Below are positions 1 to 10,475 of a stretch of DNA of 64,000 nucleotides, in pieces. A program made the translations under genes and the position numbers. The notes under the pieces were generated by a model. That model was not told where the DNA came from. It searched no databases and saw only the letters and a program-made list of their open reading frames with translations. The first letter of the stretch is position 1; every line of letters begins with the position of its first letter. Source of the DNA: Sediminibacterium sp. FEMGT703S (GTDB lineage Bacteria > Bacteroidota > Bacteroidia > Chitinophagales > Chitinophagaceae); assembly GCA_002786355.1 (NCBI GenBank), contig PGCO01000004.1:93297-157296 (forward strand). Direction: 5' to 3'.

Positions 1-617
1 TTATCTGACCACCCGAATAAAAACCATCTATTGTTATATTCTTTTAGGAAATAAGGGCTAAATATAATTTGATAGGATTCGGATGCATAAAAGTGCTTGT
101 ATGTTATTTTTAAAACTTGCTTTTTTATTATTGAATTATACAAATCACCCAAGAAGTCAGAGCCAAGAACTGTTGGAGGGTTTTCAAATGCAATTACTGG
201 CATTTTTTCATTAGATCTCAACTTTATTTTATGCTCTAACCTTTGAACTATTCCTTCTATTTCATCTGCTATAGTAAAGCCTTTTATTTGTTGCATTATA
301 TCTACTACCTCTCTTAATCTTAAAACATCTTCTTCCTCAAGAGGAAGCTTATTTATTGAAAAATTGATATCCTCGTATATGTAATATACAGAAGTCCCTT
401 CTTTTACCGTATTTATAGGTGCGCCATACTCAGCTTGCATGTCGTTTAAATCATTTCTAATTTGGCTTAAAGAGATAGTGGTATTATTCCCACATTTTTC
501 TTCTAATTTTTTATTTACAACATCCAATAAATTTCTTTTTGACCATTTATGCAGTGTATTACGTAAGCATTCATCAATTATTTCAAAACGAACTCTTGCT
601 GCTTTATTTACTGGCAT
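1..617 (-). CDS. WYL domain-containing transcriptional regulator, N-terminal ~205 aa (gene runs off the window start)
   Basis: Own minus-strand translation from the ATG at 617-615: MPVNKAARVRFEIIDECLRNTLHKWSKRNLLDVV...KITYKHFYASESYQIIFSPYFLKEYNNRWFLFGWSD. It shows an N-terminal wHTH and the start of a WYL domain (RWFLFG). It is absent from the ORF track because it is open at the window edge. Confidence 0.75.
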   Translation of the reverse strand, partial: MPVNKAARVRFEIIDECLRNTLHKWSKRNLLDVVNKKLEEKCGNNTTISLSQIRNDLNDMQAEYGAPINTVKEGTSVYYIYEDINFSINKLPLEEEDVLRLREVVDIMQQIKGFTIADEIEGIVQRLEHKIKLRSNEKMPVIAFENPPTVLGSDFLGDLYNSIIKKQVLKITYKHFYASESYQIIFSPYFLKEYNNRWFLFGWSD

Positions 618-665
618 AACTGTTTTTCTTACTAAAGTACCGATTTCCTTTCTATCTATATATTC

Positions 666-719
666 AATTTATATATGTATGAATTTATATTTATTAGAAT
701 TACTTGCAAATAGGTTGCA
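666..719. promoter_or_regulatory. Candidate operator elements in the divergent WYL / 756..1097 intergenic region
   Basis: Direct repeat AATTTATAT at 666-674 and 682-690. Inverted repeat TGCAA-N5-TTGCA at 705-719. The region is AT-rich, so chance occurrence is possible. Confidence 0.25.
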
Positions 720-755
720 TAGTTCTACTTCAATTTTGATTTCAAATAGGGATTT

Positions 756-1097
756 ATGCAAAAAACACTTACAGTTGTATCAAAAGATGAGAAAACAGGC
801 TGGGTTGAATCATTTAGGTTCACTCATACAAGCCATTCTTTTACAAGGTCAGCACAAAGAGGTATTGATAGTTCAAAACTTTCTATTGCCTTATTATATG
901 GACAACCATTTTATAAGCAAGGTTTAATCTACTATGTTCTAGGGGAAAATAATATCCCAAGTAAATTAATGAATAATAAAGAGTCCTTACGAAATACTAT
1001 TGTTATTGTAGACGGAAAATCGGATACTATCATTACATGTTATCGTGCTAAAGATCCTTTTAAGCATATAAAAAGAAAGTCAAGTATTCTTAAATAA
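756..1097 (+). CDS. Small protein, DUF4258-like (putative toxin-type fold)
   Basis: 113 aa. The pattern SHSFTRSAQRGI...LLYG...IVIVDGKSDTIITCYRAKD resembles the H..R...R.I ... ITvY pattern of DUF4258. The call is made by eye only. Confidence 0.45.
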   Translation: MQKTLTVVSKDEKTGWVESFRFTHTSHSFTRSAQRGIDSSKLSIALLYGQPFYKQGLIYYVLGENNIPSKLMNNKESLRNTIVIVDGKSDTIITCYRAKDPFKHIKRKSSILK

Positions 1098-1113
1098 TAA
1101 ATTAATTACTATT

Positions 1114-1515
1114 ATGAAAATATATCACTTAGAAACTTTAATCAAATTTGGTGTTTATAATGGGAAAACTCTCCAACAAGTGATGAGTATTGATAAGCCG
1201 TATATTGAGTTTTGCTTAAACAAATTAGAACATTTTGTTATTACTGAAGAAACAATCAGAATGTATCAAATGATTAATCCCACATTTATCTTATCCATCA
1301 AAGCTGAAAATGCACTAAGGGAAAAGATAAAAAAGTTAAAAGACTTATTTGAACAAGAAGACGATAATGATTGGGATGAAGAAGATGGTAATGAACATCC
1401 AAAAGATAGTTATGGATCTAGTGGTACTAAATATGGATGGTATAATGGATTTAGTGATGATGTGATTGATGATGCATTTGAAGGTGATCCGTCGAATACA
1501 TGGAATGTAGATTAA
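1114..1515 (+). CDS. Hypothetical protein, ExoX C-terminal/DUF3820-like N-terminus and acidic linker
   Basis: Starts 16 bp after the previous gene. FGVYNGKTLQQV..DKPYIEFCL resembles the FGKYKGKTL..D..YL.W motif. It has the acidic tract EQEDDNDWDEEDGNE and the C-terminal DDAFEGDPSNTWNVD. Confidence 0.5.
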   Translation: MKIYHLETLIKFGVYNGKTLQQVMSIDKPYIEFCLNKLEHFVITEETIRMYQMINPTFILSIKAENALREKIKKLKDLFEQEDDNDWDEEDGNEHPKDSYGSSGTKYGWYNGFSDDVIDDAFEGDPSNTWNVD

Positions 1516-1856
1516 TTCCTAAACGCCCCATATTTATAAAAATCGGTCATCACTATTTTAGCACTCTGGTATTCTTTCAGTTCGTATTTTGGTGCAATAC
1601 CTTTTTCTCTCTGTTCCGACATTTCTTGTAAGCGTTTATAATAGGCTTTGTTTACATCAGTTAAAGTAAAGGTTGGTTCATCATCTAGTTTTAGTAAATG
1701 GTAGCACTTTGAGAGTGGGCGTTTATCTAAATTAGAAGTTGGCTGTGGAATGCTAGTCGTTTTTTCAGCTTTGACGGGCTCAGGCTTTTTCGATAGAATG
1801 TAGTCTACCAATCTTATCAATCCCGCTAAATAAATGATTCCCCAAATAGTAGACAT
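1512..1856 (-). CDS. Hypothetical protein with N-terminal hydrophobic helix and degenerate J-domain-like region
   Basis: 114 aa. The N-terminus IWGIIYLAGLIRLVDYIL is hydrophobic. CYHLLKLDDEPTFTLTDVNKAYYKRLQE resembles J-domain helices I-II but has no HPD motif. It is convergent with 1114..1515 (stop codons overlap) and divergent from 1918..2220. Confidence 0.45.
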   Translation of the reverse strand: MSTIWGIIYLAGLIRLVDYILSKKPEPVKAEKTTSIPQPTSNLDKRPLSKCYHLLKLDDEPTFTLTDVNKAYYKRLQEMSEQREKGIAPKYELKEYQSAKIVMTDFYKYGAFRN

Positions 1857-1917
1857 AAAACATTTTTTATTTATTCACAACCTTTCTTTCCGACAACCTT
1901 TTTTATAATTTGTTACA

Positions 1918-2220
1918 ATGATAATTAATTCTCTTTCAACCACAGAAACCTTACCCGAAATTTTTCAGGAAGTTCAAACCATTACTCTTGAACAATTAGA
2001 CATTGCTGGCCAAGTGATTCTACATTGTAGACATTATGGCTGCAATGCAGAATGTGGTAAATCAATCCGTTGCGAAATTAAATTGAATCCAGGAATTGCG
2101 CTGGTACCAGTTGACGGTGGTAATCCTTCCACCATATTGAACCGGATGGGCCTGGTGGAGAGGGATGGGTTATTCGTAATATCAAGCGATCTGCTACAGA
2201 TGTATATAAGCTCACTTTAG
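1918..2220 (+). CDS. Small Cys/His-rich protein, first gene of the four-gene module
   Basis: 100 aa with the motif HCRHYGCNAEC plus a further Cys. A truncated paralogue lies at 5199-5360. Confidence 0.5.
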   Translation: MIINSLSTTETLPEIFQEVQTITLEQLDIAGQVILHCRHYGCNAECGKSIRCEIKLNPGIALVPVDGGNPSTILNRMGLVERDGLFVISSDLLQMYISSL

Positions 2221-2330
2221 GCACTCATGCTTCTTGGGAGGGTGAAATAGACTTCTAGCCTTTACAAGCTTGTAGAAATCAAAATGGCTTATTGTGCCTG
2301 GTAATTTTACACAACAACAAAACAATTACC

Positions 2331-2966
2331 ATGAAACAAACAAAAACAATCTATCACTTAATTTTAGACAGAAGTGGTTCAATGATTGACTGCCTAGAAA
2401 ACACGATTAATGGATTTAACGAGCAGATTCATCGGATTCGTAGAATTAAAGCTGAATTTCCAGATGACGAAATGACTGTTGGTTTAACTATCTTTAATGA
2501 AGAAGTAATTATAAAATACCTGGCTTCCGACCCCCATGACGTCAGTCTTCTTGATTCACTTTCATATAAGCCCGGGGGGTCTACTGCTTTATTAGATGCA
2601 ATTGGTTTTACCGTCAAGCGAATTGAAAGTGAACTGGAACGTTCGAATAATATTCAGGATACCAGTGTAATTGTTGTGGTCATTACAGATGGTTATGAAA
2701 ATGCTTCAAAAATTTTTTCGATGCCAGAAATAAAATTAATGATTGCTAGGCTGGAGGAAACTACCAAGTGGAATTTTGCATTCATTGGTGCAACACTTGA
2801 TGCAGTTGAAGTAGCTAAAGCAATGTCAATTAAATCTAAAAACAGTTATTCTTTCAATAAAAATGAAATGGACTCTGTAGTTTGGGATAAGTTGAACCTT
2901 TCACTTTTAAGCTATAGCCAAAAAAAGAAGAATAAGCAATCCGACGATAATCTTTTCGGAGAATGA
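2331..2966 (+). CDS. von Willebrand factor type A (vWA) domain protein with intact MIDAS
   Basis: MIDAS residues are present: DRSGSM (DxSxS), GGSTALLDA (Thr) and VITDGYEN (Asp). I take the start at ATG 2331 (MKQTKTIYHL) rather than the upstream TTG at 2292. Confidence 0.85.
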   Translation: MKQTKTIYHLILDRSGSMIDCLENTINGFNEQIHRIRRIKAEFPDDEMTVGLTIFNEEVIIKYLASDPHDVSLLDSLSYKPGGSTALLDAIGFTVKRIESELERSNNIQDTSVIVVVITDGYENASKIFSMPEIKLMIARLEETTKWNFAFIGATLDAVEVAKAMSIKSKNSYSFNKNEMDSVVWDKLNLSLLSYSQKKKNKQSDDNLFGE

Positions 2967-3015
2967 AAACCATAGTTAATAGTATTCAATAATAATATAA
3001 AGCAATCGGATCCTA

Positions 3016-4164
3016 ATGAAAGTACATTTAATCAAAAGCAATAAACTAGACATTGAACTGTTTACAGACATTGTTGGTCTGTTAACTTCTATTCCGGGTC
3101 CTATTCAGTTTATTTATGATGAAAAGGATACAATAAATTATAACCAAGAATCTTTTTCTTCAATTGTGTATGAATCAGAAGAACAATTTGAAATTCTCAA
3201 AATGATGCAAATTGATTCACTTTATAATAAAGTATACCCATTAGAAATAGATACTGTTTCTTGGAAAACTATTTTTGACAAGTGCAATAAGTATAGAGCT
3301 AAAAAAAGGTTGCAGGAAGAGGATTTTGTTATTCTATTGACTGAAGTAGCTAATGAGAAAAACTGGTTTGCTGCACTCGATCCTGATAATTTATACAACA
3401 GCTTTGTACATGCTGATGATTGGGAACATTATATTGATTGCCAACCCCAATTTCCGATTGCCTATGAGGTAATTGCACAAATTCTTCATCATTACTCAAT
3501 TAAAGGTGGTGATGATTTCTTTAATGTATTTCATAATCAATCAATCGGATGTGTAAATGATTTCTGCACCAATAAAAGGGAAATCATCCTAAAACTGCGA
3601 ACAGCAGATATATGTATGGGCTGTATGACCCGGTTAAAAAAACAGATGCCTTTTTTAATGATCAATCATGCTTTGTCATTGTTGGAGTCTTTAAGGATTA
3701 AAATGCTTTTTTCTCAAAACTTTAAACAGCAGCTTCCGCCTAGCAAGCTTATCATTGATAGACAGTATTGTATATTTCTACCTGATTTTAATAATATTGA
3801 AATTAAACTTACCCCTTTAGAAAAAGCACTTTATATCTTGTTTCTATGCGATCCTCAAGGTATTTCCTTATCCCAACTTTGTGAGCATAAAGAAGAATTA
3901 TATACCATTTATGCTGCCCTTGCTAATACCGGTGACTTTAATGAAATGAGGGGTAGGATAGACGATATGGCTAATGCGCTTAGTTCGTCTGCATCCCAAA
4001 AGATCTCTAAAATAAAAAAGGTCTTTGAACTAAATATTGGAACCGAATTAGCGGCTCATTATTATATCAAGGGCGCTAATGGTGAAGAAAAGGGTATTTC
4101 ACTTGACAGGAACCTGGTTGAGTTTGATAGCAGTTTGCCAATACATGGCAAACACCCCCTTTAA
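3016..4164 (+). CDS. Uncharacterised 382-aa protein with a Cys4 cluster and a wHTH-like C-terminus
   Basis: Long ORF with no competing frame. It carries a CX3C-X16-CX2C cluster (GCVNDFC...ADICMGC). The C-terminal helical region LTPLEKALYILFLCDPQGISLSQL...ELYTIY looks wHTH-like. No family recognised. Confidence 0.7.
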   Translation: MKVHLIKSNKLDIELFTDIVGLLTSIPGPIQFIYDEKDTINYNQESFSSIVYESEEQFEILKMMQIDSLYNKVYPLEIDTVSWKTIFDKCNKYRAKKRLQEEDFVILLTEVANEKNWFAALDPDNLYNSFVHADDWEHYIDCQPQFPIAYEVIAQILHHYSIKGGDDFFNVFHNQSIGCVNDFCTNKREIILKLRTADICMGCMTRLKKQMPFLMINHALSLLESLRIKMLFSQNFKQQLPPSKLIIDRQYCIFLPDFNNIEIKLTPLEKALYILFLCDPQGISLSQLCEHKEELYTIYAALANTGDFNEMRGRIDDMANALSSSASQKISKIKKVFELNIGTELAAHYYIKGANGEEKGISLDRNLVEFDSSLPIHGKHPL

Positions 4165-4188
4165 TTTTACCTCCCTCAAATACATTCC

Positions 4189-5133
4189 ATGCAAACACTT
4201 AAAAACATTCTCGATGCCGAATTAGATCGGTTAATTAGTATCCAACATTTTCAAGAACCTGCGGTGGGTGTGTCTTCTGGTTTTAAGTATTTGGATAGGG
4301 CCATAAATGGATTTAGGCCACAACACTTATACCTCTTGAGCGCTGCTCCAGAGTCGGGTAAAACGGCGTTTTTGCTCAACCTATTATTATGCATTACCGT
4401 TAAAAAGAAAAATCCTGCTAAAGCCCTGTTTTATAGTTTAGACATTAGTGCGGCTGAAGTGGCGCAGCGTTTGTTGAGTTGTAATTCTGGGGTTACCATG
4501 GAGCATGTTTTTTATGGAACCACCAAGTCTGAAGTAATTGAAAAACTCTACATTGATGTGGATCAAATTAAAGACCTCTCTACTAATTTATTCATTGAAG
4601 ATTATCCTTCTTGCTCTATCGAAACCATACGTGCGCAATTAACCGAATTGAAAGCGCAAAATCAATTGCCTTCTATTGTGGTGATTGATAATATCAATCG
4701 CATTGCGGTGGAGGGTGATCCTACTCCTGAATCGGATGACTATGGGGTTATTCCTGCTTCTTTAATAGAGCAGTTAAAAAAGATTGCCATCGATTTTAAT
4801 ATTCCACTCTTGATTTCTCCTGAAACCAGTCCCCTTGATCCTGATGTTGAAACCGATCGTATGCCTCGCTTATACGTATTGCGTCAAAAGAATTTCAACT
4901 TACACTTAATTGATGTGGTGATGTTTTTGTTGATGCCGAATTACTATGCCGTTCCAACCGGGGAAGATGATATCAACCCCGGTCATGTTTCTAGAGCGGG
5001 ATATCCTTTGCCCAAAGGCTTTAGTGAAATGCACCTTCGAATTCCGCTCAATCGCTGCGGCCCTATTACCACCGTGTACTTCAACGCCAATATGGAATCA
5101 CAAACGATTATGGAGGATGTGGGGTATAATTGA
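4189..5133 (+). CDS. DnaB C-terminal domain-like (RecA-fold) ATPase without the DnaB N-terminal domain
   Basis: By eye it aligns with E. coli DnaB residues ~200-470. Shared elements are GFKYLDRAINGFRP, Walker A AAPESGKTAF, Walker B IVVIDN and NRCGPITTVYF (DnaB has QRNGPIGTV). The SLEM Glu is Asp here (SLDI), and the SQLNR motif is replaced by ISPETS. Confidence 0.8.
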   Translation: MQTLKNILDAELDRLISIQHFQEPAVGVSSGFKYLDRAINGFRPQHLYLLSAAPESGKTAFLLNLLLCITVKKKNPAKALFYSLDISAAEVAQRLLSCNSGVTMEHVFYGTTKSEVIEKLYIDVDQIKDLSTNLFIEDYPSCSIETIRAQLTELKAQNQLPSIVVIDNINRIAVEGDPTPESDDYGVIPASLIEQLKKIAIDFNIPLLISPETSPLDPDVETDRMPRLYVLRQKNFNLHLIDVVMFLLMPNYYAVPTGEDDINPGHVSRAGYPLPKGFSEMHLRIPLNRCGPITTVYFNANMESQTIMEDVGYN

Positions 5134-5372
5134 TTAGGTATTTATACTCTATAATTGTTAGTGTAGGTCTATGTATTTTTATAAAAATATTTTATTGGGA
5201 AATATTTCAAGAAAATAAAACCATTACTCTTGAACAAGTATATACGGCTGGCCAAGTGATTTTACATTGTACGCATTATGGCTGCAATGCAGAATGTACT
5301 AATCCTTCCATTTTATTGAACCCGATGCACCTGGTGGAGAGGGATGGTGTTTTCGTAATAGCCACCTTCTAA
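5130..5372 (+). pseudogene. Truncated paralogue of the Cys/His-rich small ORF
   Basis: 5199-5360 matches 1957-2181, roughly 85% by hand count. It has an in-frame ~66-nt deletion that removes GKSIRCEIKLNPGIALVPVDGG. The only available start is a TTG inside the gene-end repeat, and there is no in-frame ATG. Confidence 0.5.
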
Positions 5373-5481
5373 ACAAGCATATTCAAGCTATCCATGAAAC
5401 TAATTACAAAACAATCTGATTTTAGTAAGTTTACAAGGAAGGAAATCAAGTAAAATCTTAACAGTAATATATCATTTAAAT

Positions 5482-5721
5482 ATGAGCAGCATAAAAATAT
5501 TTGAAGAAAAAAAAGTGCGTAGCCAATACGATGCAGAGAGAGAGGGAAACGAGACGGTTACAAACTGTAACCAACTGAAACTGCAGTCTGAAGATGGTAA
5601 ATTTTATAAAACCGATGTGGGGAGTGTAGAAGATATTTACCACCCAAAAAAGAAACCAAAAAATAGATCTATACCAAGACATGGCAAAAACCCCTTTAAT
5701 TTTACCTCCCTCAAATATTGA
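5482..5721 (+). pseudogene. Bro-N / phage antirepressor-type gene fragment
   Basis: SIKIFEEKKVRSQYDAERE and GNETVTNCNQLKLQSEDGK match the N-terminal region of Bacteroidota Bro-N family proteins, with the intervening ~40 aa missing. The 3' end fuses to a copy of the junction between the 382-aa gene and the DnaB-like gene. Confidence 0.5.
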
Positions 5722-5723
5722 CC

Positions 5724-6093
5724 ATGCAAACACTCAAAACCATTTTCGATGCCGAGTTAGATCGGTTGATTAGTATCCAACATTTTCAAGAACCAGCAGT
5801 GGGTGTGTCTTCTGGTTTTAAGCGCTGCTCCTGAGTCGGGCAAAACGGCGTTTTTGCTCAACCTATTTTTAAGCATTACCGTTAAAAAGAAAAACCTACT
5901 CCTGAATCGGATGACTATGGAGTTATTCCCGCTTCTTTAATGGAACAGTTAAAAAAGATTGCCATCGATTTTAATGCCCCCAGGCTTTTCTGAAATGCAT
6001 ATTCGTATTCCGCTTAATCGCTGTGGTCCTATTACCACCGTTTACTTTACCGCCAATATGGAATGTCAGCTGGTGTATGAGGATGGGGTGTAA
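5724..6093 (+). pseudogene. Deletion-riddled remnant of the DnaB-like ATPase gene
   Basis: It consists of four collinear blocks matching 4189-4287, 4341-4416, 4720-4800 and 5010-5133 (about 85-93% identical). The reading frame is broken after the first junction (TGA at ~5836). Confidence 0.85.
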
Positions 6094-6103
6094 TTGATTG
6101 ATT

Positions 6104-6117
6104 AGGTATTAATACCT
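6104..6117. repeat. Perfect 14-bp palindrome AGGTATTAATACCT after the remnant stop codon
   Basis: The sequence is its own reverse complement and is identical to 7365-7378. The intact gene carries the degenerate form AGGTATTTATACTC at 5136-5149. Confidence 0.9.
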
Positions 6118-6190
6118 ATACTCAATAATCCAATAAAATCTGATATTCAATTAAAGGATAATCAATTAAACGCTTTTAAAATATTGGGTT

Positions 6191-7285
6191 ATGAAATCTA
6201 AAAGAAAGCAGTTGGGAAATGAAATTGAAAGAGTTGTCTTTCCATTGGCTGAGAATGTAAAAGAAATGCCTGATGGCTATATTTCTTTTGTAGATGAACT
6301 CAAAGGGTTTATTAAAAAAGAGAAGCTATCTACTATACTCCATGCCAATCAACGAATGATATTAATGTATTGGCATATTGGTAAGGCTATTCTTTCCAAA
6401 CAAGGAACTGAAGGCTGGGGTACAAAAGTAATTGATCGCTTGTCTGCAGACCTAAAAGATGCTTTTCCTGAAGAAACAGGATTTTCAACAAGAAACTTAA
6501 AATACATGCGAAAGTTTGCTGAATCGTGGGCAGACTTTGAAATTGTGCAACGCACCGTTGCACAAATACCTTGGCGAAGCAATATTACTCTATTAGATAA
6601 AATAAAAGAACCAGAATTACGGCTTTGGTATGCTCAAAAAACCATCGAAAATGGCTTTGGAAAAGATGTGTTAGTTTTTCAAATTGAAAGTGAACTACAC
6701 AAAAGGCAAGGCAATGCTGTTAGTAATTTTCTAGATACGTTGCCACCCTTGGAATCTGATTTGGCGAAACAATCTTTTAAAGACCCTTATATTTTTAATT
6801 TTTTAGGTAACGCAAGTCATATCATAGAAATGGAGTTGGAACAAAAACTCATAGACCATATTCAAAAGTTTCTACTTGAACTTGGACAAGGCTTCGCGTT
6901 TGTGGGTAGGCAGGTGCATTTAGAATTGGGGGACAGCGATTTTTACCTTGACTTACTTTTTTATCACATCAAGCTGAAGTGTTATGTGGTGATAGAATTA
7001 AAAACGGGCAAGCTAGAACCTGGCCATATAAGCCAACTTAATATGTATATGAATGTGGTAAACGATGCACTTTGTGGTAAAGACGACAATAAAACCATTG
7101 GCCTATTACTAGTAAAAGAAAAAGACAAAATAGTAGCTGAATATTCATTGGCGGGTGTAAATAATCCAATAGGGATTTCAAACTGGGAAAAAGACATTAA
7201 AAAATCCCTACCAGACAATCTTAAAAGTAGTTTACCAAGTATAGAGGAAATTGAAAACGAATTCGATAAAGATGAGGAATTATAG
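6191..7285 (+). CDS. YhcG-family PDDEXK nuclease domain protein (DUF1016)
   Basis: 364 aa. The N-terminal helical region (ILMYWHIGKAI...GWGTKVIDRLSADL...FSTRNLKYMRKFA) and the C-terminal nuclease core (DLLFYHIKLKCYVVIELKTGK) are typical of DUF1016. Confidence 0.85.
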   Translation: MKSKRKQLGNEIERVVFPLAENVKEMPDGYISFVDELKGFIKKEKLSTILHANQRMILMYWHIGKAILSKQGTEGWGTKVIDRLSADLKDAFPEETGFSTRNLKYMRKFAESWADFEIVQRTVAQIPWRSNITLLDKIKEPELRLWYAQKTIENGFGKDVLVFQIESELHKRQGNAVSNFLDTLPPLESDLAKQSFKDPYIFNFLGNASHIIEMELEQKLIDHIQKFLLELGQGFAFVGRQVHLELGDSDFYLDLLFYHIKLKCYVVIELKTGKLEPGHISQLNMYMNVVNDALCGKDDNKTIGLLLVKEKDKIVAEYSLAGVNNPIGISNWEKDIKKSLPDNLKSSLPSIEEIENEFDKDEEL

Positions 7286-7302
7286 GCCGATCAATTCCCA
7301 AT

Positions 7303-7378
7303 ATCTACCTTACCGCTAATAAGGAATCACAAACGATTATGGAGGATGTGGGGTATTATTGATTAGGTATTAATACCT
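7303..7378 (+). repeat. Third copy of the 3' end of the DnaB-like gene, with the palindrome
   Basis: TTACCGCTAATAAGGAATCACAAACGATTATGGAGGATGTGGGGTATTATTGATTAGGTATTAATACCT matches 5083-5149 and 6045-6117. It encodes ..ESQTIMEDVGYY*. Confidence 0.8.
7365..7378. repeat. Perfect 14-bp palindrome AGGTATTAATACCT (second copy)
   Basis: Identical to 6104-6117. The two copies bracket the YhcG gene. Confidence 0.9.
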
Positions 7379-7421
7379 GAATTTTTGAATTCCTTTTTTT
7401 GCAAATCCTTGTTCACTAACT

Positions 7422-7613
7422 TGTCGGAATTTCCGACATACCACTCAACATGGTGCTATAGAAGGAAAAACACAAGAAAAAGATGTGAAATATTACAATC
7501 TTGATGTAATCATTTCAGTAGGTTATCGTGTAAAATCGCCCCAAGGCACACAGTTCCGTATCCAGGAAATACGTTTATCTGAGCGGTTCTTCTATCAAAA
7601 AAATAGCCCATAA
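7422..7613 (+). pseudogene. RhuM family virulence protein fragment (A)
   Basis: Own translation: CRNFRHTTQHGAIEGKTQEKDVKYYNLDVIISVGYRVKSPQGTQFRI. YYNLDVIISVGYRVKS..GTQFR is the RhuM signature. There is no start codon and no N- or C-terminal parts. Confidence 0.7.
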
Positions 7614-7645
7614 ATTCTTTTGTTGGTGTATGAGGATGGGGTATG

Positions 7646-7708
7646 GATGAAAGTTCAACTGTTCGGAATTTCCGAACAATTGCCGATGATAGAAAACTAC
7701 GGTTCTAA
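7646..7708 (+). pseudogene. RhuM family fragment (B), different lineage
   Basis: Own translation: DESSTVRNFRTIADDRKLRF*. It resembles the ..VRKFRTTAADGK.. segment of RhuM proteins. It is preceded by a partial fourth copy of the DnaB-like gene end at 7622-7646. Confidence 0.4.
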
Positions 7709-7845
7709 CAACAGTTTAAATTGTTTAAACAAACAAAAAGTGTTAGAATAGATAGATTTGAATCTGCTTAATATTACTCTGAAAATGAAAAATTAGAACA
7801 ACTTCCGGGTTTGGCACGTTTTTACTTCCAAGTTTGGTATTTTTT

Positions 7846-7862
7846 CTTGTCAACTTGTCAAG
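7846..7862 (+). promoter_or_regulatory. Tandem direct repeat CTTGTCAA x2, candidate operator of the phd/vapC promoter
   Basis: CTTGTCAACTTGTCAAG lies 30 bp upstream of the antitoxin ATG. Type II antitoxins commonly autoregulate through repeats in their own promoter. Confidence 0.35.
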
Positions 7863-7891
7863 AAAATCCTAACTTTAACAAAAGCAGTATT

Positions 7892-8128
7892 ATGGAAACA
7901 CTAACTGTAGGGGATTTTAAAGCAAACTTCTCTGAAGTCCTAAAGAAAGTGCAGAATGGGGAAGAAATTGCTATTTCCTTTGGTAAAAAAAAGGAAATAG
8001 TTGCCAGACTTGTACCAGGCTCTGGTCAAAAAAAAGAAAAAAGGAAAATCGGCATTTTTGAAGGGAAAGGTAAAGTTGTCTTCAAGAATAACTTTTTAAT
8101 TACTGAAGAAGAATTGCTTGGCGCATGA
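7892..8128 (+). CDS. Type II antitoxin, Phd/YefM family
   Basis: METLTVGDFKANFSEVLKKVQNGEEIAISFGKKKEIVARLVP is a typical Phd/YefM N-terminus. Its stop overlaps the PIN toxin start (ATGA). I take the start at ATG 7892 rather than the TTG at 7811. Confidence 0.8.
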   Translation: METLTVGDFKANFSEVLKKVQNGEEIAISFGKKKEIVARLVPGSGQKKEKRKIGIFEGKGKVVFKNNFLITEEELLGA

Positions 8129-8532
8129 GTAACTATCTCTTAGACACTCATTACCTACTTTGGACTTTGGTAGATACCAAGAAGCTCTCTAAAAAAATTA
8201 AAGATATAATTGTTGATCCCGACAATACTATTATAGTTAGTTCAATAAGTTTTTGGGAAATTTCTTTAAAGTATTCATTAAGAAAATTAACGATTACTGG
8301 CTTTACTCCCGAGGAGTTACCACAAGCTTGCGCTGAAATGGGCTTTCTAATTGAACCCCTTTCCCCTATTGATAGTAGCAGCTATCATCAATTGTATCCT
8401 GCATATCATAAAGATCCTTTTGATAAAATGCTTATCTGGCAAGCTATGTCTAACCAATACACACTTATCAGCAACGACGAAACTGTAGCGAAATATAAGT
8501 CACTAGGTTTAAGGATAATTACCAGCAAGTAA
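8125..8532 (+). CDS. vapC: Type II toxin, VapC family PIN-domain ribonuclease
   Basis: The PIN acidic residues are in the usual context: YLLDTHYLLW, SSISFWEI, HKDPFDKMLIWQA and LISNDE. Confidence 0.85.
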   Translation: MSNYLLDTHYLLWTLVDTKKLSKKIKDIIVDPDNTIIVSSISFWEISLKYSLRKLTITGFTPEELPQACAEMGFLIEPLSPIDSSSYHQLYPAYHKDPFDKMLIWQAMSNQYTLISNDETVAKYKSLGLRIITSK

Positions 8533-8588
8533 GTTTCTGAAATTTTCACTAACTTATTCTCCTATATTTCTCATTTAATTGCATTCTC

Positions 8589-10475
8589 ATGAAAAAACTT
8601 TTCCTTGCCATTGGCCTGTTTGCATGCACGGCCGGCGCAACTAATTTAAAAGCACAAGACACGGCGGCTATTTATCGCAAGCTCGATTCTATTGCCGTGA
8701 TTGATCAAAAAGTAATGATGCCCATGCGCGATGGTATTCGCCTGGCTACCGACATCTATCGCCCAAAGGGCAATGGAAAATATCCAATTGTATTTTCTCG
8801 TACCCCGTATAATTTCAATACTTGGGTGGATGGAAAAATGACTACTCGCACATTGGAAGATGCGTATCAAGCAGTGAGTCGCGGTTATGCCTATGTAGTG
8901 CAGAACGAAAGAGGAAGATTTTTCTCTGAAGGTGAATGGGATATTTTAGGTACGCCCATCACCGATGGTTACGATGCCTTAGAGTGGATGAGTAAACAAG
9001 CTTGGAGCAATGGTAAAGTGGGTTTGATTGGCTGCTCTTCTACTGCCGAATGGCAGATGGCGGTGGCTTCTCAGAACCATCCTGCTTTAGCCGCAATGGT
9101 TGCGCAGGGCTTTGGTGCGGGTGTGGGTCGTGTGGGTCAATTCATGGAACAGGGTAACTGGTACCGTGGTGGTGCGCAACAAATGTTGTTCACGTCTTGG
9201 TTGTATAGTACGCAACATGATAAGCTTGCGCCGAAATTACCAATCGGTATTCAGCAAAAAGATTTACAGCGTTTGCAAAAGTTTTATGATATGGGTCCTG
9301 AATATCCAAGAGTAGATTGGGCGCAGGGATTAAGAACGCTACCGATTATAGACATCATCAAAAAAGCACAAGGTCCTGATGGTATTTATGAACAAATGGC
9401 GGCTCGCAAACCCAATGATCCAGCATGGTTCAAGGGTGGTCTTTATCACGATAATATGCCTATGGAAGTGCCTGCTTATTGGTTCGTAAGCTGGTACGAT
9501 GTTTCTTCTGCGCCAAATATTGCTTTGTTCAATCATGTGCGCAATGCAGCTAAAAATAAATCTGTTGCCGATAATCAATACCTAGTGATTGCCCCTGTGT
9601 TGCATTGCTCTTATAAGCGTGCTACCGAAAATACCATCGTGGGTGAGCGTAGTGTAGGTGATGCTCGTTTGAATTATGATGAACTTACTTGGGGTTGGTT
9701 TGATATGTTGTTGAAAGGTCAACAAAATGATTTTAAATCGGCTCAACCTCGTGTTCGTTATTATACAATGGGTTCAAACAAATGGCAACAGGCCGAGAGC
9801 TTCCCTTTACCGAATACCGAAATGAAGCCTTTCTATTTATCTAGTGCGGGCAAAGCCAATACCCGCAATGGCGATGGGGCTTTAACCATGATGCCTCCTG
9901 CAAAAGATATTCCTGATGCTTTCACTTACGATCCTATGAATCCGGTTACTTCTTACGGTGGTAATGTTTGCTGTACTGGAAACGCCGTGCAAGGCGGCAG
10001 CTTTGATCAATCCCAAATGGAATTGCGCAATGATATCTTAGTGTACACTTCAGATGAATTAAAAGATGGGGTGGAAGTGACCGGGTTCATTGAGTCTACC
10101 CTCTATGTTTCTTCTACTGGCTTAGATACCGATGTAACAATTAAATTGATTGATGTTCACCCTGATGGCAAAGCTTACAATTTAGATGAAACCATTCAAC
10201 GCTTGCGTTACAGAGAGGGATACGATAAAGAAGTGTTCATGGAAAAAGGCAAAGTGTACAAAGTCAATTTAACCCCAATGGTGACCAGTAACTATTTTGC
10301 ACCTGGTCATAAAATTCGCATTGAAGTTTCTAGTAGTAACTTCCCTCGTTTCGATCGTAACTTAAATACAGGTGGTAACAACTATGATGAAGCTACTGGT
10401 GTGGTGGTAGAAAATAAAATTCACCACTCTAAGCAGTATCCTTCTGTAATTAAATTACCCATCATTAAAAAGTAA
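8589..10475 (+). CDS. CocE/NonD family hydrolase (X-Pro dipeptidyl-peptidase S15-like), secreted
   Basis: Has a signal peptide. Motifs seen: [27 protein letters not shown] (nucleophile elbow) and the C-terminal [15 protein letters not shown]. Confidence 0.9.

Follow-up and report, generated by a model that had tools for sequence, protein, structure and literature searches.

The window, a 64,000-nucleotide stretch of Sediminibacterium sp. FEMGT703S (contig PGCO01000004.1), carries near its start four same-strand open reading frames (ORFs) separated by 110, 49 and 24 bp, which the initial annotation read as a single four-gene module and a candidate undescribed system. These are a 100-aa Cys/His-rich frame (ORF1), a 211-aa von Willebrand factor A (vWA) gene, a gene for a 382-aa protein, and a gene for a 314-aa ATPase made of the C-terminal domain of DnaB (DnaB_C). 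All four frames are present, yet the locus is a composite, with a core operon nested inside a second gene pair, and not one four-gene system. A conserved and undescribed gene unit does exist there, though it is reduced to the vWA and 382-aa genes (the core pair), as ORF1 is dead, just 6 of the 88 loci add DnaB_C to the pair, and DUF6717, the usual third partner, is absent from the window. The explanation that we favour, and on balance judge probable, is that the core pair forms a self-regulated vWA/382-aa operon nested within a pair formed by DnaB_C and the family to which ORF1 belongs (c3). Judged from its sequence, this core would be an undescribed and self-contained operon, encoding a vWA protein and a predicted zinc-finger/winged helix-turn-helix (wHTH) protein and carrying a conserved operator-like site.

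The loci compared comprised 80 genome loci, mainly from Chitinophagaceae and also from Cytophagales and Flavobacteriales, to which metagenome loci were added, and components were scored with hidden Markov models (HMMs) on six-frame translations of 88 non-redundant loci. The 382-aa family is large, as a word-indexed search returned 655 proteins and an exhaustive profile search reached 3,148 clusters (at 50% identity), of whose representatives 867 scored E<=1e-30. Its members are mostly 370-390 aa long, none carries an informative name, Pfam scans of the atypically long ones gave no extra domains, and the closest match to the window is a Sediminibacterium metagenome-assembled genome. Of 75 testable loci, 69 have a vWA gene immediately before the 382-aa homologue and in the same orientation, and the distance from vWA stop to 382-aa start has a median of 5 bp (<=10 bp in 37 of 65 loci); the two genes form an obligate pair and are probably coupled in translation. 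PF00092 (E 1e-8) and phrog_7371 (E 9e-35) identify the 211-aa protein as a vWA domain, and the complete metal ion-dependent adhesion site (MIDAS) ascribed to it at the outset holds across the family, with DxSxS, T and the D of TDG nearly invariant among relatives. These vWA proteins are 204-213 aa long and single-domain, and homologue lengths as well as promoter position favour ATG 2331 over TTG 2292 as the start codon in the window.

Half of the loci (35 of 70) also carry DUF6717 (PF20475, ~140 aa), which is usually the first gene, while in Cyclobacterium and Algoriphagus it sits between the vWA and 382-aa genes. It is fused to the N-terminus of vWA in at least 25 protein clusters, the only fusion of vWA seen, and two loci (L080 and L082) combine DUF6717 with the 382-aa gene and lack vWA. 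DUF6717 was not found in the window, and no literature came up under DUF6717 or PF20475. When a natural DUF6717-vWA fusion was folded and submitted to Foldseek, there were matches for the vWA part and none for DUF6717. Relatives of both proteins occur in phages, the vWA relatives (30-35% identity) as single copies among hypothetical genes in 213 phage genomes, and DUF6717 (phrog_24162) as a standalone small gene in large Cellulophaga phages, e.g., phi17:2 gp100 (L096 3998-4318). In addition, L008 and L009 carry a second vWA-like gene of 193 aa after c15(-)-c3 (L008 12089-12670), c15 being the gene that diverges from the locus in the window.

The alpha/beta N-terminal half, Cys cluster and wHTH-like C-terminus initially attributed to the 382-aa protein agree with its AlphaFold2 (AF2) model, which has a predicted local distance difference test score (pLDDT) of 83.5. 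The layout consists of a degenerate archaemetzincin-like domain (residues ~1-170), a Cys4 finger (173-203), a long helix, and a C-terminal wHTH (~245-370). The Cys cluster had been written as CX3C-X16-CX2C and actually reads C179-x4-C184-x15-C200-x2-C203; these cysteines, a putative zinc finger, are kept in 257-265 of 265 members, and H173 before them as well as D182, K187, R195, T196, and D198 are invariant. In a Foldseek search against the PDB, the model best matched the archaemetzincin AfAmzA (3zvs_A, E 9e-4, probability 1.0, target-normalised template modelling (TM) score 0.67), followed at ranks 2-30 mostly by adamalysins and fragilysins, with ADAMs too, while the C-terminal part showed a weak likeness to ToxR/OmpR-type wHTH domains. 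Against BFVD, nothing was significant and zincin matches were faint. The helix that bears HExxH in metzincins reads Y150-E151-x-x-A154; HExxH occurs in 0 of 265 members, E151 is retained in only 190 of 265, and the Met-turn methionine (C-x-M) is absent from the window's protein, which has T-N-K after C184.

The archaemetzincin signature is HEXXHXXGXXHCX4CXMX17CXXC, in which the four cysteines make up a zinc finger immediately beneath the catalytic site (PMC3427221). AfAmzA, of family M54, is the best structural match for residues ~1-210 of the 382-aa protein, and the two have in common a Cys4 finger placed right after the active-site helix (C-x4-C ... C-x2-C) and an invariant His before it. 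They differ in the spacing of the cysteines (15 here vs 19), in the replacement of HExxH by Y-E-x-x-A, in the missing Met-turn Met, in the fusion of the 382-aa domain to a wHTH module, and in showing no sequence-profile similarity; PF07998 has no match in the 382-aa protein. The N-terminal domain thus resembles archaemetzincins in fold and Cys4 geometry and is not a family member, and, going by the model, it is most likely not a canonical metalloprotease. A genuine Peptidase_M54 archaemetzincin, with the motif HELGHTQGLPHC-x4-C-x-M-x17-C-x2-C, is encoded in L101 (710-1321, -), where it diverges from and adjoins the vWA gene at the position at which related loci carry the ORF1 family, a neighbour noteworthy given the archaemetzincin-like domain of the 382-aa protein.

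Counting k-mers in the 200 bp upstream of each unit's first gene uncovered a conserved 14-bp palindrome, TTACAAGCTTGTAA/G, present in about 56-60 of 70 loci, with its core CAAGCTTG in 52 of 67 and the perfect 12-mer TACAAGCTTGTA in 40-50. It precedes DUF6717 where that gene exists and otherwise vWA, at 50-130 bp (typically about 65 bp), and an alignment of 56 loci anchored on the palindrome places a TAnnTTTG-like -7 box ~27 nt downstream, a putative Bacteroidota-type promoter element. The window's copy holds the perfect 12-mer at 2263-2274, starts 4 bp past the c3 remnant's stop codon (2256-2258), stands 66 bp upstream of the ATG of vWA, and is the only perfect copy within the 64 kb. In 1.07 Mb of loci there are 81 core matches, about 60 at unit promoters and ~20 elsewhere, the latter at chance level. 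The palindrome is retained in the vWA-less DUF6717-382aa loci (L080, L082) and absent from all DnaB_C-only loci examined. A reverse scan for the exact 14-mer placed 5 of 120 listed metagenome matches and 0 of 120 listed viral matches at operon genes; a bare 14-mer in such large collections is mostly background. Three of the five (L105 881-894, L145 73-86, L189 3492-3505) abut wHTH-only short homologues, which are about 128-200 aa long, correspond to HMM positions ~211-374 of the 382-aa family, and lie on higher-GC metagenome contigs with no other conserved gene among their uninformative neighbours. The palindrome therefore tracks the wHTH module, being found at L080/L082 and L105/L145/L189 and not at DnaB_C-only loci, and from this we infer that the 382-aa protein may bind it and autoregulate the operon.

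Some loci depart from the common arrangement of the palindrome. In L105, two wHTH-only genes diverge from it, and L008 and L009 carry two copies (L008 8830 and 9289), one before a 127-aa gene that replaces DUF6717 and one before vWA. An extra perfect copy in L070 (16234-16247) lies 142 bp upstream of a gene for a 112-aa secreted-looking Gly/Tyr/Asn-rich protein, which is followed by small membrane proteins and is the only candidate for an additional regulon member seen. Copies near full-length dnaB, at a constant 466-479 bp (about ten viral contigs, among them L257 6687, L248 4075, L256 898, and L271 8606), were set aside as coincidence, the copy lying inside a conserved 168-aa coding sequence of near-identical prophages. 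A sigma-70 promoter scan returned fewer sites than shuffled sequences and is not meaningful for Bacteroidota.

The favoured explanation would work as follows. A two-gene operon would encode a MIDAS vWA protein and a 382-aa DNA-binding protein, with DUF6717 as the first gene in many members. A dimer of the 382-aa protein would bind the palindrome via the C-terminal wHTH and thereby control the protein's own operon; the archaemetzincin-like N-terminal half would act as a sensor or interaction domain, most likely not as a protease, and its Cys4/His region may be a sensor of metal or redox state, or a binding site for nucleic acid. The vWA protein, together with DUF6717 where present, would dock on the 382-aa protein via the MIDAS metal site, and this docking would tune DNA binding upon a signal. 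In a Sediminibacterium-centred subclade, the operon lies between the ORF1-family and DnaB_C genes, and DnaB_C would in consequence be read through from the operon promoter. As output, it could be speculated that the operon serves an anti-phage or conflict response, or a stress response; a defence role is possible, with support confined to the window's lineage.

Several observations weigh against this explanation. Neither an output gene nor an effector domain was found in the unit, so that "regulator" is a partial description. The symmetric palindrome variant TTGCAAGCTTGCAA occurs in six loci, and a comparison for co-variation of the 382-aa protein with the palindrome drew on these six, five of which are close relatives; another factor could also bind the site. 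No PDB entry matched the 382-aa family in a sequence-profile search, hhalign of the family against the genuine M54 protein of L101 returned a probability of 0.3%, and the archaemetzincin likeness of the modelled N-terminal domain holds at the fold level only. The residues around the finger include the invariant H173, D182, and D198, which could make up a remodelled active site, and the domain is perhaps not inert. Finally, the DnaB_C-containing block is co-inherited to 48-60% identity, and DnaB_C could work with the pair in that clade.

A bolder and tentative reading is that DUF6717, vWA, and the pseudo-archaemetzincin/Cys4/wHTH protein make up a new and widespread conflict-type sensing system of Bacteroidota, directed at phages or mobile elements, with a fixed core of vWA and DNA-binding protein, a dedicated palindromic operator, and a swappable third module. 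The identity of that module would, just as tentatively, be DUF6717 in most lineages, and c52, the ORF1 family, and DnaB_C in the window's clade. Under this reading, standalone DUF6717 and vWA homologues of phages would be decoys.

Table 1 Features at the locus in the window (positions in the 64,000-nt stretch)
Feature	Position	Strand	Description or basis
ORF1 (100 aa)	1918-2220	+	Cys/His-rich reading frame in 64-kb window
vWA/MIDAS gene, core gene 1 (211 aa)	2331-2966	+	PF00092, phrog_7371
382-aa gene, core gene 2	3016-4164	+	homologue family, AF2 model
DnaB_C-only RecA-fold ATPase, accessory (314 aa)	4189-5133	+	PF03796
c3 (ORF1-family) pseudogene	1918-2258	+	tblastn with intact L006/L007 proteins
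c15, 114 aa	1512-1856	-	divergent neighbour; HMM matches in relatives
Palindrome, operator-like	2262-2275	.	TTACAAGCTTGTAG
-7 promoter box, putative Bacteroidota-type	2302-2309	+	TAATTTTA
Decayed c3-DnaB_C copy	5130-6097	+	blastn, tblastn, HMM matches
Third DnaB_C 3' end	7303-7362	+	tblastn 78%, blastn 89% identity

ORF1, taken at first for a 100-aa Cys/His-rich gene, is a frameshifted pseudogene of the ~151-aa c3 family, whose intact members are found in L006, L007, and L099. Frame 1 (1918-2142) encodes residues 1-75 of c3, and frame 3 (2124-2255) encodes residues 108-151, the latter 98% identical to L006 by tblastn, and a deletion of ~110 bp relative to L006 takes out residues 76-107. Because ORF1 is frameshifted, the apparent 110-bp spacer consists of the dead 3' part of c3 and the promoter of the next unit, and because the palindrome and promoter lie downstream of the c3 remnant, c3 stands outside that unit. 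Intact c3 is found immediately upstream of DnaB_C in L092 and L093 (HMM E 3e-49), and c3 lies within 10 kb of the core pair in 15 of 88 loci, among which its place and direction vary. A relationship between the ORF1 family and DUF6717 was considered and rejected (hhalign probability 0.5%). The divergent gene c15 encodes an N-terminal hydrophobic helix, has no family match, and stands beside DnaB_C or c3 in L006-L009, L090, L091, and L100-L102.

The 314-aa protein is indeed a DnaB C-terminal domain that lacks the N-terminal domain, with PF03796 (E 2e-32) as its only Pfam domain, and it scores 113.8 bits against TIGR00665, for which the equivalog cut-off is 385. It keeps Walker A GKT, the Walker B Asp, the Arg finger, and the linker helix that DnaB needs for hexamers, while the catalytic Glu has become Asp85 and the sensor Gln is lost, both changes being conserved in its family of 27 clusters, mostly from Sediminibacterium. 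It also matches the PHROGs of phage "DnaB-like replicative helicase" phrog_19 and phrog_243. In common with replicative DnaB and the short helicases of phrog_243, it has the linker helix and a RecA-like domain with Walker A, Walker B, and Arg finger; it differs from them in the missing N-terminal domain, catalytic Glu, and sensor Gln, in falling below the equivalog cut-off, and in forming a small Sediminibacterium-centred family at a defence-island hotspot. The gap before DnaB_C is 24 bp in the window and 9-24 bp in the subclade, with no predicted terminator, and DnaB_C is probably co-transcribed with the core pair by read-through.

DnaB_C also occurs apart from the vWA and 382-aa genes. In L090 (Sediminibacterium sp. 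TEGAF015), L091 (sp. C3), and L100 it lies directly beside c15, and this is the same chromosomal site because the Peptidase_S15, DUF6814, and MFS genes downstream of the window's locus are shared. In the alignment, L090 9517-9928 matches window positions 1513-1961 and L090 9965-10939 matches 4153-5133, while L090 lacks the 2.2 kb of window sequence in between. In L092 and L093, whose DnaB_C is 43% identical to the window's, c3 and DnaB_C are adjacent and thus form a pair in their own right, in agreement with the decayed copy in the window. In these two loci, DnaB_C is followed by an unknown protein of 245 or 384 aa and by a tandem of two ORFs that weakly resemble DUF6717 (L092 12100-12852, L093 5424-6146; own HMM E 1e-5 to 3e-7, Pfam E 0.005), an arrangement that hints at a deeper link of DUF6717 to the c3/DnaB_C pair.

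DnaB_C always follows in the subclade whose 382-aa protein shares 60% identity or more with that of the window. L099 has c3-vWA-382aa-DnaB_C with all genes intact; L007 and L010 have vWA-c52-382aa followed by a fragmented DnaB_C, with the pair intact; and L101-103 have vWA-c52-382aa-DnaB_C-c15(-)-c3, identity to the window's proteins being 48% for DnaB_C and 60% for the 382-aa protein. The claim of a heritable block stands in this one subclade, in which vWA-(c52)-382aa-DnaB_C persists at 48-60% protein identity, and it does not extend beyond. The accessory genes decay independently, c3 being dead in the window and DnaB_C in L007/L010, unlike the vWA and 382-aa genes, which are intact in the window and in L099, L007, L010, and L101-103. 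The gene c52 (~407-417 aa; L007 5923-7176, L010 564-1784, L102 980-2203), located between the vWA and 382-aa genes, shows a weak coiled-coil signal and no family match, and is absent from the window, L099, and L006.

The whole unit had been thought to recur in decayed form directly downstream, where only c3 (5130-5369) and DnaB_C fragments (5674-6097 and 7303-7362, the last encoding DnaB_C residues 296-313) are found. By blastn, tblastn, and HMM, this region holds no vWA remnant, and of the 382-aa gene nothing but the last ~27 nt. The decayed copy is an old duplication of the c3-DnaB_C pair, since L099 and L010 share it. Between its c3 and DnaB_C remnants lies a RhuM-like candidate, a 79-aa ORF (5482-5721) with likeness to the RhuM/Bro-N N-terminus, and the YhcG gene further downstream is flanked by DnaB_C 3' ends at 5975-6097 and 7303-7362, which gives the impression of cassettes accumulating at the DnaB_C 3' end.

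These arrangements bear on the view closest to the initial annotation, namely that all four genes, or vWA, the 382-aa protein, DnaB_C, and a small protein, act as one phage-defence or conflict system, with an NTPase, a vWA adaptor, and a peptidase-like DNA-binder, which we consider unlikely. Such a system would fit the recurrence of the block in the window, L099, L007, L010, and L101-103, where its proteins co-diverge, and the short gap before DnaB_C with no predicted terminator. It would likewise fit the ORF1 family within 10 kb of the pair in 15 loci, the company that the clade's block keeps with type I restriction-modification (R-M), Pycsar, DISARM-like, AbiE, and toxin-antitoxin genes, and the theme of ATPase, vWA, and peptidase-like protein seen in known systems (PMC7159879). 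Yet ORF1 is a pseudogene upstream of the operator and promoter, DnaB_C is fragmented in L007/L010 beside intact vWA and 382-aa genes, five loci have DnaB_C without the pair and 82 of 88 have the pair without DnaB_C, and the catalytic Glu and sensor Gln of DnaB_C are replaced. Nor is there a recognisable effector or any PADLOC match: PADLOC-DB v2.0.0, a check proposed at the outset, returned no model for the window's four proteins, intact c3, c52, c15, DUF6717, or the DUF6717-vWA fusion. Across Pfam, NCBIfam, PHROGs, and PADLOC, only vWA, DnaB_C, and DUF6717 were recognised among the window's four and the intact accessory proteins, with no match for ORF1 or the 382-aa protein; an Rfam scan of window positions 1-9000 gave no RNA family, and a literature search found no paper on this gene combination.

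The surroundings in the window are island-like, as first described, with a WYL-domain regulator (3-668, -) that is cut by the window edge and a YhcG/DUF1016 PDDEXK nuclease gene (6191-7285) matching PADLOC PDC-S02 (E 1e-138). A PDB sequence search with the window's VapC candidate gave no match. In the window's clade, neighbours include type I R-M, Pycsar, DISARM-like, AbiE, HipBA, Fic, MqsA/SocA, and YhcG PDC-S02 genes. The defence-island setting is thereby borne out for this subclade, whereas elsewhere the neighbours are mostly ordinary chromosomal ones: among 140 randomly sampled neighbours from 61 loci, no family appears more than two times, PADLOC matches amount to a handful, and housekeeping functions, among them RecA, PheS, and isocitrate dehydrogenase, account for many.

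The WYL regulator family is found near the pair in seven other loci, frequently together with the ORF1 family (L017, L022, L034). It serves as an example for a further view, that the palindrome is bound by another regulator or is a general promoter element and that the 382-aa protein acts on some other DNA or ligand. The presence of this one-family regulator in the window and seven loci, and the few variant loci behind the comparison for co-variation, could be taken in its favour. We nonetheless regard it as quite improbable, as the palindrome is found in about 56-60 loci vs a WYL gene in only about 8, stands beside wHTH-only homologues with no other conserved neighbour, and has only chance-level copies elsewhere in the window and the loci (~20 core matches outside operons in 1.07 Mb).

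Flanking genes are common to groups of related genomes, so that within genera the locus appears to be passed on stably with the chromosome. Searches of 50,697 phage records and 2.9 million viral contigs yielded no member of the 382-aa family, and plasmids hold just two partial C-terminal homologues, in Prevotella and Segatella, with uninformative neighbours. A consistent link to primase, replication-initiator, or integrase genes had been named as an outcome that would point to a replication module, and no such gene recurs at the loci examined. Accordingly, it is very improbable that the module or the c3-DnaB_C pair is a replication or maintenance unit of a small integrated element, with the 382-aa protein as an initiator that recruits the helicase to an origin-like palindrome: the phrog_19 and phrog_243 matches, the kept hexamer linker helix, the tandem decayed copies, the prophage-like one-strand array of small unknown genes in L093, and the predicted sequence-specific DNA-binding protein encoded just upstream would suit such a unit, but the 382-aa family is missing from phage and viral collections and nearly so from plasmids, the chromosomal site in Sediminibacterium is fixed, the palindrome keeps a fixed spacing to the -7 box and occurs mostly in helicase-less loci, and the helicase catalytic residues are substituted.

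Returning to the self-regulated core operon, the nearest known kind is the MoxR-vWA ternary conflict systems, which comprise VMAP, iSTAND, FtsH, and beta-propeller types (Kaur et al. 2020, PMC7159879). Both are tight multi-gene units around a MIDAS vWA hub, here with nearly invariant DxSxS, T, and D and a confirmed fold, and both have a partner of unknown fold, a peptidase-type theme, and variable accessories; the linkage to an NTPase is matched in the window's clade only. Unlike in those systems, no MoxR/AAA_3 gene is found among the called genes of the window module, L001-L009, and L099-L103, and where their ATPase is a MoxR AAA+ protein, only the RecA-fold DnaB_C is present here, in 6 of 88 loci. 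Their vWA proteins have variable C-terminal effectors, whereas the vWA protein here is bare (~210 aa), and the VMAP/iSTAND/FtsH/beta-propeller component is unmatched, as the 382-aa model matches metzincins and not STAND or AAA+ proteins. The partner here is instead a putative DNA-binding protein with its own operator-like site, in Bacteroidota, mostly Chitinophagaceae, and largely in ordinary chromosomal contexts. With the TerY-P triad and Gao_TerY, the pair has in common a small standalone vWA of the YegL/TerY kind, and some homologues are named "uncharacterized protein YegL" in their source records. However, no PP2C phosphatase or Ser/Thr kinase is found among the called genes or the 140 sampled neighbours, and there is neither a PADLOC TerY match nor a Ter gene nearby.

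A second point of comparison is offered by ImmA/ImmR, IrrE/DdrO, CapP/CapH, and BlaR1/BlaI, in which a zincin-fold domain is coupled to a (w)HTH protein that acts on a palindromic operator. In these switches of metalloprotease and HTH repressor, the operator precedes an accessory or defence operon. The core pair resembles them in its zincin fold, wHTH, and palindrome, and differs in that both parts lie in one polypeptide, in lacking the catalytic His, and in having an obligatory vWA/MIDAS partner. As the catalytic histidines are missing, de-repression by cleavage is unlikely for the 382-aa protein.

If the favoured explanation is true, an unannotated family of more than 3,000 50%-identity clusters would become a defined and testable unit, in which a zinc-finger/wHTH protein, with a metzincin scaffold stripped of its catalytic residues, is obligatorily paired with a MIDAS vWA protein. 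The nearly invariant 14-bp palindrome provides an experimental handle and an aid for annotating these operons in Bacteroidota. The locus also shows how a defence-island hotspot can nest unrelated gene pairs into an apparent "system", which calls for caution in discovery by guilt-by-association. A defence role, if shown, would add a MoxR-less vWA-based system to those already described.

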